A DNA stretch of 64,000 bases from Bdellovibrionales bacterium (GTDB lineage: Bacteria; Bdellovibrionota; Bdellovibrionia; Bdellovibrionales; UBA1609), in the NCBI GenBank assembly GCA_965219095.1, contig CBDCMT010000001.1, forward strand, positions 1,728,001-1,792,000. The letters run 5' to 3'. Of this stretch, positions 18,474-27,700 are shown one piece after another. The notes under the pieces were generated by a model. It ran no database searches, was not told where the DNA came from, and saw only the letters and a list, made by a program, of their open reading frames with translations. Position numbers and translations under genes: made by a program. The stretch's first letter is position 1. Every line of letters starts with the position of its first letter.

Positions 18474-18541
18474 AAACAAATTGAGTTATTATGCAACAAT
18501 AGTGCTATGAGTCGAAAATAGTGGAGTTATTTTTAAGGTAA

Positions 18542-18710
18542 TACCAATTACAGAAATTAATTCGATATTTTTATATTCAAATTTAAAATTTTAAAATTGA
18601 CTTAAGGAAAAGCTTCAGTTAGGAGATTTTAAAAAAACTTCTTTTGAGGGGAGGTTGAATTTTCATAAGATATGTTTATTTCATGTATAGTGCTTCCGTT
18701 TAGGTTTTTA
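18542..18710 (-). mobile_element. Remnant right end of the resident IS630 abutting a MITE-type end
   Basis: Matches 24942-25090; followed by TATAGTGCTTCCGTTTAGG, whose reverse complement occurs at ~33680 and ~50040. Confidence 0.75.
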
Positions 18711-19930: not shown

Positions 19931-20079
19931 GTTAATCTACTTATAAGGGCTTTTTTAGAATAAAGGACATTTGTGTGCTGTCGTCAAGAGGAATTTTTTA
20001 TCAGATGGAAGAACAAGAGGAAAAAGGTGTTTGAGCCTGTAAAGAGCCTGTAATACCAATTACAAAAATTAATTTCGAC

Positions 20080-21672
20080 GGTAAATCAAAAAGACAGGTC
20101 ACTGGTTTAAGCCATGATAGTGACCCTAAAGTACTTGCAGAAGGAGGTGAGCTTTTCGAGACAAATTCTAAACCCTTTAGCTGGCCTGGTTTTTAAGGCC
20201 TCAAAGGGAAAAGCAAAAAAAAGATGTAAAATAGGATTTCAAGACTTTATTTATAAACAAACCAACAAAGGAGGAAAATAAAATGTATGATCACTATATA
20301 GCCGTAGATTGGGCACAAAGTAACATGGCCATTTCAAGGATGACAGGCAAATCAAAAGATATTAAGACTATGGACACGATTTCAGATCTTGGGAATCTTC
20401 GTGCCTATTTAAAAACTCTGAAAGGTAAGAAGATATTGACTATCGAAGAGACTACAACTTCGATAGTGGTTGTATTCAGAATTAAAGGATAGTGTTGATG
20501 AGTTCATAGTCTGTGATCCTCTTCGGAACAAACTTTTAAGTGAAGGGGCTAAAACTGATAAAATTGATGCTGAAAAACTTGTTTTATTGTTACGCTCTGG
20601 CCTTTTGAAACCAGTTTTTCACTCAGGTGATGAATTCATTTACCTTCGTAAGATTGTCAGTGGGTATGAAGATGTGGTTAAAAGAGGAGTTCGTGTTAAA
20701 AACCAAAGATCAGCTCTGTTTCGAGCTTCCCATCTTGATGCTAAGAAGCAGACTCAATTAAAACGGGCAGAAGAGATATATTTGTTCTAGAAGGCTTAGA
20801 TAAAGCTATCAGTTCTTATGGGGAGGAGAAAGCACGTTATGAAGCAGAGTTTAAGAGGCTAAGTAAAAAACACAAAGATATTAGCAATCTTAGTAGCATT
20901 CCAGGAATTGGTTCTATCAAGGCTATCAAGATTGTAGCCAGGGTTGTAGTGCCTCACCGATTTAAACGTAATTCCTGGTGGAGTGGACTGCGGACTTGTA
21001 AAGCTACATAAAATGAGTAGTGGAAGGTCTTATGGAACTAAGAAGTCTAGGTTTTGCCCACAAATGAAAAGTGTTTTTAAGATAGCTGCACTCTCAGTTA
21101 TAGGAAATAACAATGAATTTAATGATTTTTATGAAGAATTGATCAAAAAAAATTTACCACCACACACTGCTAGAAATGCTACCAACTAGAAGAATTGCAG
21201 CTTTAACTTTAGGTGTTTTCAAGTCTGGGAAAAAATATAAACCTTATGGAGAACGTAAAAATGTAAATAATAATAAAACAACCTTATAAAATCATCTGTT
21301 TAAAGTTTCTTGCATAGTAAGTAACAATACAAATAATGACTTTATGAGGTGAGGATAGATAGCTTAATAAAAATGATATTTATAAAAAATTCATTTCGAC
21401 GAATAGCACATCCTCTATTCCTGAAATTTACTATAATCTAAGGTTTTAAATCTTTGGAATTCATGATTTAAAACTAAAAAAGGTTCAGATAGACGCATAA
21501 TAGGAATATGTTTGTTTTACAATGTGTAAAGGAAGAGTCATTAAAAAATGGAAAGGAAATGCAGGAAGTTTTTTCTTAGGTGATTAGAATATTCGTGACC
21601 GTATGCAAAAAAAATTTTTTATATTTTTTGTAAATGGAGAAGTGTTTTTTCTTGACATACTTTTTGATAGAC
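20080..21672 (+). mobile_element. IS110-family (IS1111-type) element; transposase pseudogene 20283-21289 with several frameshifts
   Basis: IAVD, E and KTDKIDA (DEDD); IPGIG and CGLV..SSG motifs; sub-terminal IRs ATCAAAAAG (20085-93) / CTTTTTGAT (21660-68); about 380-bp right non-coding end. Confidence 0.85.
21305..21570 (+). ncRNA. Putative bridge/seek RNA of the IS1111-type element
   Basis: Two stem-enclosed loops (21351-21415, 21416-21508) inside outer stems; loop segments match target and donor junctions. Confidence 0.65.
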
Positions 21673-21758
21673 ACTCTAAAAATTTAACAGAGTTTGATTA
21701 AAAAGCCAGGACGCTATGCGTTAAAAGAATGTCGAATTAATTTTTGGAAATGGTATAA

Positions 21759-21863
21759 CAAGGTAAGAATGCATTCCTCCTTGGAATACATGAGTCCAGA
21801 AGAATTTAAACAAAGGAGGGCTTTAAGAGTATAAAAACTGTCCACTTTTTTGGGGGAAGCTCA
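21759..21863 (+). mobile_element. IS3-family 3' end remnant
   Basis: RMHSSLEYMSPEEF; terminus ACTGTCCACTTTTTTGGGGGAAGCTCA. Confidence 0.75.
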
Positions 21864-21974
21864 CTTTATTTTCCACTTTTATGCACATTCGAAAAACTCC
21901 TCCCAGTTCTTCTAAAGCAATACCTCTTCTTGTAGAACAGTTAAGAGTAGCCTAAAAAAGTAGGCTATAGTTTG

Positions 21975-22007
21975 AAAAAGGCTGAGAACACAAATCCCAG
22001 CCTTTTT
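21975..22007 (-). terminator. Intrinsic terminator, possibly bidirectional
   Basis: AAAAAGGCTG..CAGCCTTTTT, 45 nt past the stop of 22052-22885. Confidence 0.65.
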
Positions 22008-24780: not shown

Positions 24781-27700
24781 AATAAACATTGGAAGTTTGA
24801 CAAAACAAAAAAGGGATTTGTTCTAGAAGAAGGGCGAAGGCCTGCAAGCTATATTGTGGCAAGCTCAGATACTCGATCTTATGATGACTATGGAAAGATT
24901 GTAGAAATTCCCCTAGTTAATAAAATAAGAAAGAGAATTAATACCAATTACAGAAATTAATTCGACATTTTCATGTTCAAATTTAAAATTTTAAAATTGA
25001 CTTAAGGAAAAGTTTCAGTTAGGAGGTTTTAAAAAAACTTCTTTTAAGGTGAGTTTAAGTTTTCATAAGATAAGTTTATTTCAGGTATATCTATTTGTTG
25101 TGTAAATCGATTGATGGGTTAAAATAAGTGTAAAAAAGTGAGGTTAAAATTTAAAATGACAAAAATCAGTTACACAATTTAATTTATAGGTTCAAATTAA
25201 TTTACAAGCTTGATTCATCTTGTTGTTTTGTCCAAGATCGAGTGCATAATTTTTTAATCCTGCCCTCCTGATCGCAAAAAGTATTCCAGGCCTCACAACA
25301 AGTATTCAGTATATGGTCATAGTTTTTAAAACATGCATTCGATAATTTGATCCTTCGTAATTGTTGCCAGACTTGTTCCATGGGATTTAATTCTGGACTA
25401 TAAGGAGGTAAAGGCATCAGGGATAAATTCTTAGGAACTATCAAAGTCTCTGTGGTATGCCAACTGGCTCTGTCCATTAAAACAATTCCATGATAGTTTT
25501 CTTGAATATTTTTAGATATCTCATCTAAGTGAATTTGCATCATCCCTGAATTACATTCCGGTAAAACCCAAGCACAGCCTTTATCTTTATCCGGACAAAC
25601 TGCTCCAAAAATATAAGTGGATAAAAATTGTCTTTGCCTCACAACTCTAGGCCGTGTGCCTTTTCTTGCCCAAATCCTACTCAAAGAACCTTGCTGGCTT
25701 ATTCTGCATTCATCCTGCCACCAAATCTCTATTTTATTAGTCTGAATCTTTTCCTTTATTTTCTCCACCTCTTCTGGAAAATGTTCCTTAAACTGTTCCA
25801 TAGCTTCTTAATGAACTTTTAGGATGAAGAGAACGACCACTGATCCATACAATATTAAGGCGGTCTAAAGAAACATAAACCCCAGAAAGAGAATAGCAAC
25901 AGTCAAATTCATCTGCTAAAAGTTTCTGTATTTCCTTTGCTCCTATGCTTCCTCCCTCTCTTTTGTCTTGAATTTCATCTAACTTGATTTTGAAGTTCTC
26001 TTCTTCTGTCACTGGCAAACGAGGCTTGCGTCCTCTGCCTTCTCGATCTATCAATCCCTCGTAATCAAAGTCTACAAAATACTGTAACCAAGATTTGATA
26101 CTGTGACGGTGATACAAAACCATACCTGCTGTTTCTTGAATCGATTTTCCTTCTTGCATATGCTGCAAAGCTTGGAGTTTTATCTTGATGTTGGCACTTC
26201 TTTCTACTTTGTAAGTAGCTAGAAAATTATACCCTTGAATCTGTGTAACTAAATCTTTTTTCGACATGACTCTAAAAATTTAACAGAGTTTTATCAAAAA
26301 GCCAGGACGCAATACGTTAAAAAAATGTCGAATTAATTTTTGGAAATGGTATAAGGACTGGGAAAATAACAATTATTCAGGAGTTACGGGAGTTACAAAA
26401 AGATTGCTAGATTTTTGGCATCAAGCCCCTGAAGATTGTGGAAGGCAGTTTTCTTTTTTCTTTTGTCAGCTAGAAGCCATTAAAACACTAATCTTTTTAG
26501 TAGAGGCACCTGAGCATTTAAAAACAGGATTAAAAATTCCAAAAGATGAGTCTTTAAATAGGCTTTGCTCTAAAATGGCCACAGGAACGGGAAAAACAGT
26601 TGTTATGGCTATGACCATCGCTTGGCAAATTCTAAATAAAGTGAATTATCCAAGGGATACTCGCTTTTCAAAGAATATTTTTGTTGTAGCTCCTGGCTCA
26701 ACGGTCTTAGATAGGTTAAAAGCGTTAGAGTTAGGGGGTGAAGAAAACTATTACCGTGAATTTAAAATTATTCCAAATGAGTTTATGGAGAAGATGACTC
26801 AAGGAAAAGTTTTAATTAAAAAGCGTCATCAACTTCAGTGGGAGACAGAAGAAAAACTATCTAAAAGAAAGTCAGTAGATAAAAGAGGGGCAAAGAGTGA
26901 TACAGCTTATGTAAGAGAAGTATTAGAAAATTTAGCTAACCAAAATATTGTCGTTATAAATGACGAAGCTCATCATGCTTGGAGAAGACGATCAGAGCTT
27001 AAAATAAAGAAAACCGATGAAATGACAAAGCAAGAAGCAGAACAAGCTACTAAATGGATTGAGGGGCTTGATCGTATCAATAAAACTCTAGGCATTATTA
27101 ATGTCTTTGATTTTTCTGCAACCCCTTATGCTCCAGCAGGTAAAAAAGCTGATGAGAAAGATTTATTTGAATGGATAGTGAGTGACTTTGGACTAACAGA
27201 TGCCATTGAAGCTGGTTTAGTTAAAACCCCTCGATTTGCTATTGGAGATGATGCTAGTATTGATGTAAAAAACAAAAAAACTAGGCTTTATCATATTTAC
27301 GATAGTGATGAAGTTCGCCCTGATTTAAACAGAAAGACAAAGGAAAATGAATCCTTACCCGATATTGTAAAAATTGCTTATACACACCTCTCTCATGACT
27401 GGGATAAAAAATTTAATCAATGGAAGAACAGTTGTAAAAATGATAGTGAGTTTAGACCGCCTGTTATGATTTCTATCGTAAATAGAAAAGAAACTGCTGA
27501 TAGAATTGAGTTTAGCTTTAAAGAGGAAAATATTCCTTTAGCTAATCAGTTTAACAACCCAAATAAAATGATTAAGATTTACTCTGACTTAGAAGAACGT
27601 AAAGATAAAGCGACAGGCTCAAATAAAGCCTATCAAGAAGAAGTATTTGAAAAGCTCCATACTGTTGGAAAACTTAAAGGTATCGGACAGGATATTCATC

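Follow-up and report, generated by a model that had tools for sequence, protein, structure and literature searches.

A frameshifted IS1111-type element whose predicted bridge RNA very probably guided insertion into two fixed sites of an IS630 insertion sequence

Described RNA-guided insertion sequences and the present locus

IS4321 and IS5075 reportedly insert in the terminal repeats of Tn21, and the element described here resembles them as an IS1111 member lying at a fixed position in the terminal repeat of another mobile element, but its host is an IS630 element, of whose two repeats it uses the 3' one alone, with a second guide that addresses the start codon of that same element. With ISEc11, ISKpn4 and ISPa11, as portrayed in parts of PMC11187229 and PMC11208160, it has in common a DEDD recombinase of ~334 aa (in intact relatives), sub-terminal repeats, a downstream non-coding region, the order of the RNA segments, a fixed site and orientation, and end extensions of 6 and 3 bp; in contrast to them, the shared core here is apparently one base at most, the copy is dead, and five guide versions are found in one genome. 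ISEc21, a member of the IS110 group, targets catalytic codons of IS3-family transposases, and natural redirection is reported for its relative ISMch6 (both in sections of PMC11187229). Both ISEc21 and our element represent RNA-guided insertion in the transposase gene of another IS (the RNA being predicted in our case), yet the same sections of PMC11187229 place the ISEc21 RNA at the left end with the reverse segment order, whereas the site here is a start codon and redirection falls within one genome.

The bridge-RNA mechanism and the targeting of mobile elements are already published and are not new here; the present locus is likely a good natural example of this known RNA-guided mechanism. 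A literature search by title and the beginning of abstracts gave no IS1111 element targeting IS630, most subscription journals and the supplementary target tables of PMC11187229 and PMC11208160 lying outside its scope. The value of the locus is that it presents natural bridge-RNA targeting with built-in controls, namely two guides that differ at three bases and two sites in one IS, together with unhit alleles that differ by one base or by a 3-bp insertion and so provide a ready test of mismatch tolerance. The guides within this genome also form a small data set on natural guide reprogramming, of which our literature search found no treatment in print. The family could moreover be a source of new programmable recombinases, being a divergent branch of IS1111 in which intact members are numerous, the right guide is 8 nt long and the core is apparently one base.

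The element was found in a 64,000-nucleotide stretch (hereafter the window) of a Bdellovibrionales bacterium assembly (GCA_965219095.1, contig CBDCMT010000001.1), and its features are listed in Table 1. Our reading, which we hold to be very probable, is that it is a frameshifted IS1111-type element whose right end specified a predicted two-loop bridge RNA that guided insertion into two fixed IS630 sites.

Table 1. Features of the IS1111-type element and its flanks (window coordinates)
Feature	Position	Strand	Remarks
TAA, 3-bp flank outside the IS630 repeat	20051..20053	+	same 3 bases after the other repeat at 21756-58
IS630 3' terminal inverted repeat, outer 25 bp, rare subtype (+1 T)	20054..20078	-	last bases are the left half of target site A
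IS1111-type element, 1593 bp	20079..21671	+	placement of ends inferred; 60 bp of leader seen in other copies absent
Left sub-terminal inverted repeat, 9 bp exact	20085..20093	+	6 bp from inferred end
DEDD recombinase pseudogene, four frameshifts	20283..21289	+	PF01548 above cut-off; pieces have 71-82% identity to P0002, an intact relative
Predicted bridge/seek RNA: target-binding loop, then donor-binding loop	21346..21508	+	fold and structure across relatives
Right-target guide, variant A	21368..21375	+	complementary to top strand of IS630 site A
Left-target guide (5 nt) and C matching the element's first base	21395..21400	+	common to variants A and B
Donor-loop segment complementary to the element's left end	21426..21432	+	nearly constant in relatives, pairing-compatible; predicted role
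Donor-loop segment identical to the element's right end	21488..21494	+	identity in 78/83 relatives, three sequence types
Perfect -35 hexamer	21652..21657	+	on a circle, 17 nt ahead of a weak -10 (3/6) at 20082-87; candidate promoter
Right sub-terminal inverted repeat	21660..21668	+	3 bp from inferred end
IS630 5' end, from target site B (the start-codon GTG) to the 5' terminal inverted repeat (21731-21755) inclusive	21672..21755	-	intact IS630 ORF begins at this GTG

Ends, recombinase and predicted bridge RNA

The initial annotation had proposed an IS1111-type element with a frameshifted transposase and a two-loop RNA at its right end, and this proposal is borne out by the sub-terminal repeats, the downstream non-coding region, the fold and a paired structure among relatives; the loop, stem and end motifs all lie where it had put them, although the ends of the element are likely one base further left than it had them, at 20079 and 21671. 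In relatives L027 and L120 the right junction is T while the left junction keeps a C and the guide ends in A, and the same T-right/C-left pattern occurs at 10 right ends in this genome that match a divergent RNA (see below), so that the junction C likely belongs to the element's left end. With C as first base the terminal extensions are 6 and 3 bp here and 7 and 3 bp in 71 of 98 relatives; parts of PMC11187229 and PMC11208160 give 7 and 3 bp, occasionally 6 and 3, for the IS1111 group, and put the length of its sub-terminal inverted repeats at 7-17 bp (PMC11208160) versus usually 11-13 bp (PMC11187229). Our element has an exact 9-bp sub-terminal repeat (20085-93 / 21660-68), as an IS1111 element should, and some 380 bp of non-coding DNA downstream of the recombinase gene versus 204 bp upstream (264 bp in copies without the deletion). 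Sub-terminal repeats combined with a longer downstream non-coding region constitute the IS1111 layout, and by the features tested the element belongs to the IS1111 group and would work like its members. Joining of the ends on a circle would create the candidate promoter of Table 1 (perfect -35, 17-nt spacer, -10 matching at 3 of 6 positions); no circle joint is listed in the contigs of four sequencing runs, which cannot show its absence, and an internal promoter scan of 21200-21700 returned 1 site versus 2.9 in shuffles.

The recombinase reading frame is broken near 20465, 20775, 20985 and 21185. A piece of the window gene scores 31.2 bits with PF01548, the RuvC-like DEDD domain of the N-terminus (cut-off 29), the intact relative P0002 scores 42.7 bits, and D12, E59, D95 and D98 are invariant in the alignment of relatives. 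P0002 also scores 52.9 bits with PF02371 (cut-off 21.3), the C-terminal domain that bears a conserved serine motif, and the profile aligns to the IS621 and ISCro4 transposase structures at E 1e-9 and 1e-7; the short pieces of the window itself are below the PF02371 model and do align to P0002. The NCBIfam model NF033542 (IS110 family) is the best family for each of three intact relatives (E 1e-28 to 1e-33), and since their 101-116 bits fall under its cut-off of 140, the sequences place the element in a divergent branch of IS1111. The closest recombinases, among the matches listed, are in Bdellovibrionales genomes. Contigs from four runs of one study, possibly on the source sample, list no indel at three of the four frameshifts; at 20772 one of the contigs has lost 2 bases. 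An assembly error is therefore an unlikely source of the frameshifts. The runs listed as carrying the sequence include none of RNA. No intact IS110 recombinase is present in the assembly (a 94% complete genome, longest piece 149 aa), viral contigs contained no relative of the element, and a DNA search of 40 related genomes gave no real copy, the matches being three of 28-48 nt.

The target loop of the predicted RNA is closed by GAGGAT (21351-56) and ATCCTC (21410-15) and the donor loop by TATTCCT (21416-22) and AGGAATA (21502-08), and both stems are present in the minimum-energy fold of 21290-21580 (single-sequence z-score -1.9). Inside the target loop, the reported complementarity of AAAAATG (21369-75) to the IS630 site was confirmed, its full length being 8 nt (TAAAAATG, 21368-75), and ATTTCGAC (21393-400) equals the left flank at 20072-79. 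The donor loop contains ATTTACT (21426-32) and GATAGAC (21488-94), the latter equal to 21666-72. Rough chances for the individual loop matches in a loop-sized region are 0.0014, 0.005, 0.005 and 0.06; the main support for the RNA is covariation across relatives, and not the match or fold of a single sequence.

Relatives were collected with a 143-residue natural fragment as query, the best 120 of 1477 longer relatives being 67-85% identical, and from an alignment of 40 of these 120 we retrieved 80 genome and 80 metagenome loci. Of the 160 loci, pattern searches located the target loop downstream of the gene in 112, a left end in 136 and a right end in 109; 86 loci had all three, and loci without a needed part were dropped from the matching of guides to flanks. 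The 3' segment of the target loop agrees with the left flank at 4.23 of 6 bases versus 1.81 in shuffles (88 loci, 60 distinct guides), with a left-end pattern that is biased toward C at the junction, and the 5' segment agrees with the complement of the right flank at 5.98 of 7 versus 2.88 (91 loci, 58 guides), the best of three guide lengths being used here and in the shuffles too; for neither guide did any of 5000 shuffles reach the observed value. The two tests that had been proposed for the guide reading, namely the flanks of other copies and loop-flank covariation in relatives, were both run, and both support it. Three of the four roles initially given to the loop segments hold up in this way, as the target segments covary with their flanks and the 3' donor segment equals the right end in 78 of 83 loci, in three sequence types; the 5' donor segment is complementary to the left end by Watson-Crick or G-U pairs but nearly constant, and its pairing is predicted.

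The comparison also trims the left guide. An 8-nt match to the left flank is present as first described, but its length was overstated, since position -7 does not covary (identity 0.20) and the extra T stems from an IS630 repeat subtype that is rare (4 copies); what works as left guide is TTCGA together with a C that probably belongs to the element. Similarly, the GAC ending common to both identical-strand segments is present but partly a coincidence, the base before the junction C varying among the 135 relatives in which it is readable (C 56, T 46, A 19, G 14). A 30-pair two-loop structure for 48 sequences has 91.7% paired cells, versus 37-48% in slid controls, and two-sided changes at 27 of its 30 pairs, figures that favour the model because it was partly built from the same alignment (the window and 47 of 67 distinct-guide loci, picked by eye). 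The complement of the top strand precedes the match to the bottom strand, which is the order given for IS1111 seekRNAs in a part of PMC11187229. Rfam contained no family at E up to 0.1 for 20000-22000. As a side observation, 95 of 97 loci show a handshake-like pairing in which the left guide is followed by the same two bases that open the left end; the window copy is mismatched at the second of them.

Guide variants and target sites in the genome

The 3.1-Mb genome (34% GC) is flooded with IS elements, and it contains 38 left ends and 34 right ends of the element family. A shorter pattern finds 40 left ends, 25 of them at the IS630 3' repeat (site A), 4 at the IS630 start-codon site (site B), 4 at an IS481 end, 2 at a third repeat and 5 at other sequence, which bears out the IS630 inverted repeat as a target. 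The element's left end adjoins 22 of 124 IS630 3' repeats versus none of 132 5' repeats, the two repeats having a common left half-site and different right halves. Left ends always lie on the same side of sites A and B, giving a single orientation, and with ends at 20079 and 21671 empty and filled sites differ by the element alone, with no target duplication; one empty and one filled site have at least 113 nt of outer flank in common. Two start-site junctions (C2:966174 and C2:1423839; C1 and C2 denote contigs) have three extra bases that repeat the junction GAC, and these could possibly be an excision footprint. The view of the element as an RNA-guided parasite of another IS is supported, but such parasites are already described for IS110/IS1111 elements and the targeting is not exclusive to IS630, as IS481 ends and other sites are used as well.

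Nineteen target loops in the genome are of five kinds, with 7 of variant A (including the window), 7 of B, 2 of B', 2 of C and 1 of D. The right guide of variant B departs from that of A at three bases, and the right flank of the window copy is its exact complement; in total, 9 of the 19 loops carry a sister guide matching that flank. Variant C is changed in both guides and in the inner stem. Perfect targets of guide A number 47 and those of guide B 25 in the genome, all in IS630 context, where chance predicts 0.47 and 0.12; guides B' and C have no perfect target in the genome. Site B is the IS630 sequence at the transposase start codon, on the other strand. The alleles of the two sites differ in occupancy: 21 right ends adjoin the guide-matching GTG allele versus none the 3-bp longer ATG allele (30 and 62 empty, respectively), and 8 adjoin the matching 3'-repeat allele versus none the allele with one mismatch (50 and 40 empty). 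Fisher tests gave 2e-8 (on an earlier count of 17 versus 0) and 0.02, values which overstate the effect because copies are non-independent, IS630 being able to carry or duplicate occupied ends and gene conversion to mix alleles.

A sixth RNA, 70% diverged (C1 10886-10733, L003), bears other guides, and the flanks that it predicts are present at 7 of 8 left ends of its type and at 10 right ends (0.03 expected), at unrelated sites. Its prediction of its own flanks is a second check of guide targeting within this genome. The right guide of this orphan RNA equals the left-end bases of the element family itself, and it is possibly the remnant of a lost helper. Variant D presents a different curiosity, in that element ends at C2:1617264 (-) and C2:625731 (-) lie within the target-loop DNA; the other strand of a target loop is always a perfect right half-site, and the left guide of D partly matches the adjoining stem, so these insertions may represent self-targeting.

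Junctions at IS481 (4 left, 9 right) fit guide C only with a one-base bulge. This IS481 has an intact transposase of 347 aa (L180 and ~40 other loci), with insertion ~10 bp inside its 5' end and 40 empty ends. One left end (C2:1821849 and L182) adjoins the terminal repeat of an ISAzo13-family element with a partial guide-A match, and the sole other full-length copy (C2:601327-602980 and L181) lies in the third repeat, for which we counted 5 empty sites and 3 right plus 2 left junctions. Two apparently identical copies with identical flanks, one on each contig (C1:222877-224137 and C2:2394665-2393405), likely reflect contig overlap or duplication, by which some counts are inflated by one. Elsewhere, many relatives of the element (L031, L043, L054, L056 and other loci) lie in GC-rich palindromic repeats that resemble REP sequences, and the element family may track the commonest repeat of each genome. 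Whereas IS630 elements duplicate a TA target, in the IS630 family here (~130 ends of each kind) the 3-bp flanks of most full-length copies match, as TTA/TTA or TAA/TAA.

Origin of the window copy and alternative explanations

In the window copy, the outermost 25 bp of an IS630 3' repeat are followed by the element and this by an IS630 5' end from the start codon outward, the body of the IS630 being gone. It is likely a chimera of a repeat-site and a start-codon insertion. The initial annotation had seen that the right flank does not match the right guide and had invoked a later deletion or recombination; the mismatch is indeed explained because sister guide B targets the second IS630 site and the IS630 body between the insertions was lost. 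One IS630 with insertions at both sites (C2 1421822 and 1423839) is the expected precursor form of such a chimera, a second composite with an A-type left and a B-type right flank lies at C2 1168783, and recombination between two direct copies would be the simplest route to the window copy. The left repeat of the window is of the rare subtype with the extra T, ~80% like the common 3' end. An empty copy of this subtype matches guide A at 7 of 8 positions on the right, the same as ~43 unoccupied 5' repeats, and therefore guide match alone does not fully explain the bias for 3' over 5' repeats. Movement of the composite as an IS630 unit is not supported, as matching outer flanks occur in the window copy only and roughly half of the flanks overall are TAA.

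If IS621 and ISEc11 are taken as models, the element would have been circularised, its donor loop would have paired with the joined element ends and its target loop with the IS630 site. Variant A would pair with a site just inside the IS630 3' inverted repeat, and variant B, which keeps the left guide of A but has another right guide, would pair with the start-codon site at GTG on that strand. The window copy likely came from a pair of insertions in direct orientation, one per kind of site, that recombined with deletion of the IS630 body. RNA and recombinase likely acted in trans, as copies often sit in the target of the sister guide and frameshifted copies are found at several target types. 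In fact, among 14 copies whose loop and right flank are readable, no more than 5 occupy the exact target of their own guide (read by eye), so trans action has to be assumed. Such movement in trans has been proposed for MITEPpu9 and ISPpu9 (part of PMC12288879), and IS621 can excise without a target match and insert at half-matched sites (part of bioRxiv 10.64898/2026.08.31.748434), whereas ISEc11 requires matching flanks (part of PMC11187229); these IS621 and MITEPpu9/ISPpu9 behaviours, the former shown and the latter proposed in those parts and both from the IS110 group, would explain copies in a sister guide's target or at stray sites. We infer a non-autonomous family with shared donor ends and interchangeable target loops that was moved by a helper; no helper recombinase is left in the assembly, so the helper would since have been lost, or not assembled, and the family is probably dead now.

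It could be argued that the target was read by a protein or reached through GAC microhomology, and that the loop matches are chance in AT-rich DNA, given a GC content of 34%, matches of only 6-8 nt, a GAC common to the junctions and the low own-guide agreement of 5 in 14. We find this very hard to credit, since it is largely refuted by covariation over ~60 different guides, and since the RNA scaffold has two-sided pair changes, GAC is not conserved in relatives, and a second RNA in the genome correctly predicts different flanks. A more serious contender, plausible without being our favoured account, is that the insertions go back to one or two founders, which IS630 transposition and gene conversion then multiplied, so that most junctions are passive and guided targeting took place a few times. 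An insertion at site A does not disrupt the repeat's outer 25 bp, a carrier exists, since in 19 of 52 full-length IS630 copies a frame of 357-368 codons is open, and three copies within 100 kb with the same rare repeat subtype differ at 0-2 of 795 bases. Four frameshifts are moreover common to 17 of 19, 12 of 15, 14 of 14 and 12 of 12 copies, but these span target types: the same frameshifted haplotypes have precise ends at non-IS630 flanks (the copy at C2 919972 is identical to that of the window over 795 bases), others adjoin IS481 ends and the third repeat, and the site-A copies comprise several haplotypes mixed with other target types. Among the composites examined, matching outer 3-bp flanks occur in the window copy only. 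Carriage by IS630 and gene conversion probably added copies, and multiplication of founders lowers the number of independent events without replacing RNA guidance.

Although speculative, it is tempting to read the guide-mismatched IS630 alleles (the 3-bp longer ATG start and the one-base change by the 3' repeat) as escape in an arms race, with guide B as the counter-move. Both polymorphisms fall within guide-paired bases, the 3-bp difference adjoins the insertion point, and no insertion is seen at the mismatched alleles. The 52 empty full-length IS630s fall into two clades, of 28 and 24 copies, and 19 of the 24 copies in the smaller one carry both mismatches; however, none of these 24 has a single long open frame, while all 19 such frames are in the 28-copy clade, whose alleles mostly match the guides. 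Since ATG is found in either clade and GTG is largely confined to one, ATG could moreover be the ancestral allele, with guide B simply tracking a new one. Guides that track the intact IS630 lineage fit this clade pattern at least as well as escape does, and we consider an arms race unlikely. Two outgroup IS630s (71% and 77% identical) cover neither the start codon nor site A, and among the matches listed there was no IS630 DNA in the two genomes with the closest recombinases. Equally doubtful is the broader proposition of a guide swarm, that is, a non-autonomous family, its donor ends shared and its target loops five or more in number, that was moved in trans, was retargeted over IS630 and IS481, and drove the IS630 escape alleles; if true, the genome would preserve, as a fossil record, how bridge RNAs are reprogrammed in nature and how insertion sequences engage in an RNA-guided arms race.

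Further IS material surrounds the composite in the window. An IS630 copy at 24942-26351 (-) has the ATG and one-mismatch alleles and no insertion, another, degenerate IS630 3' repeat lies at 18538-18575, and a short remnant beyond the composite (21759-21863) resembles an IS3-family 3' end.
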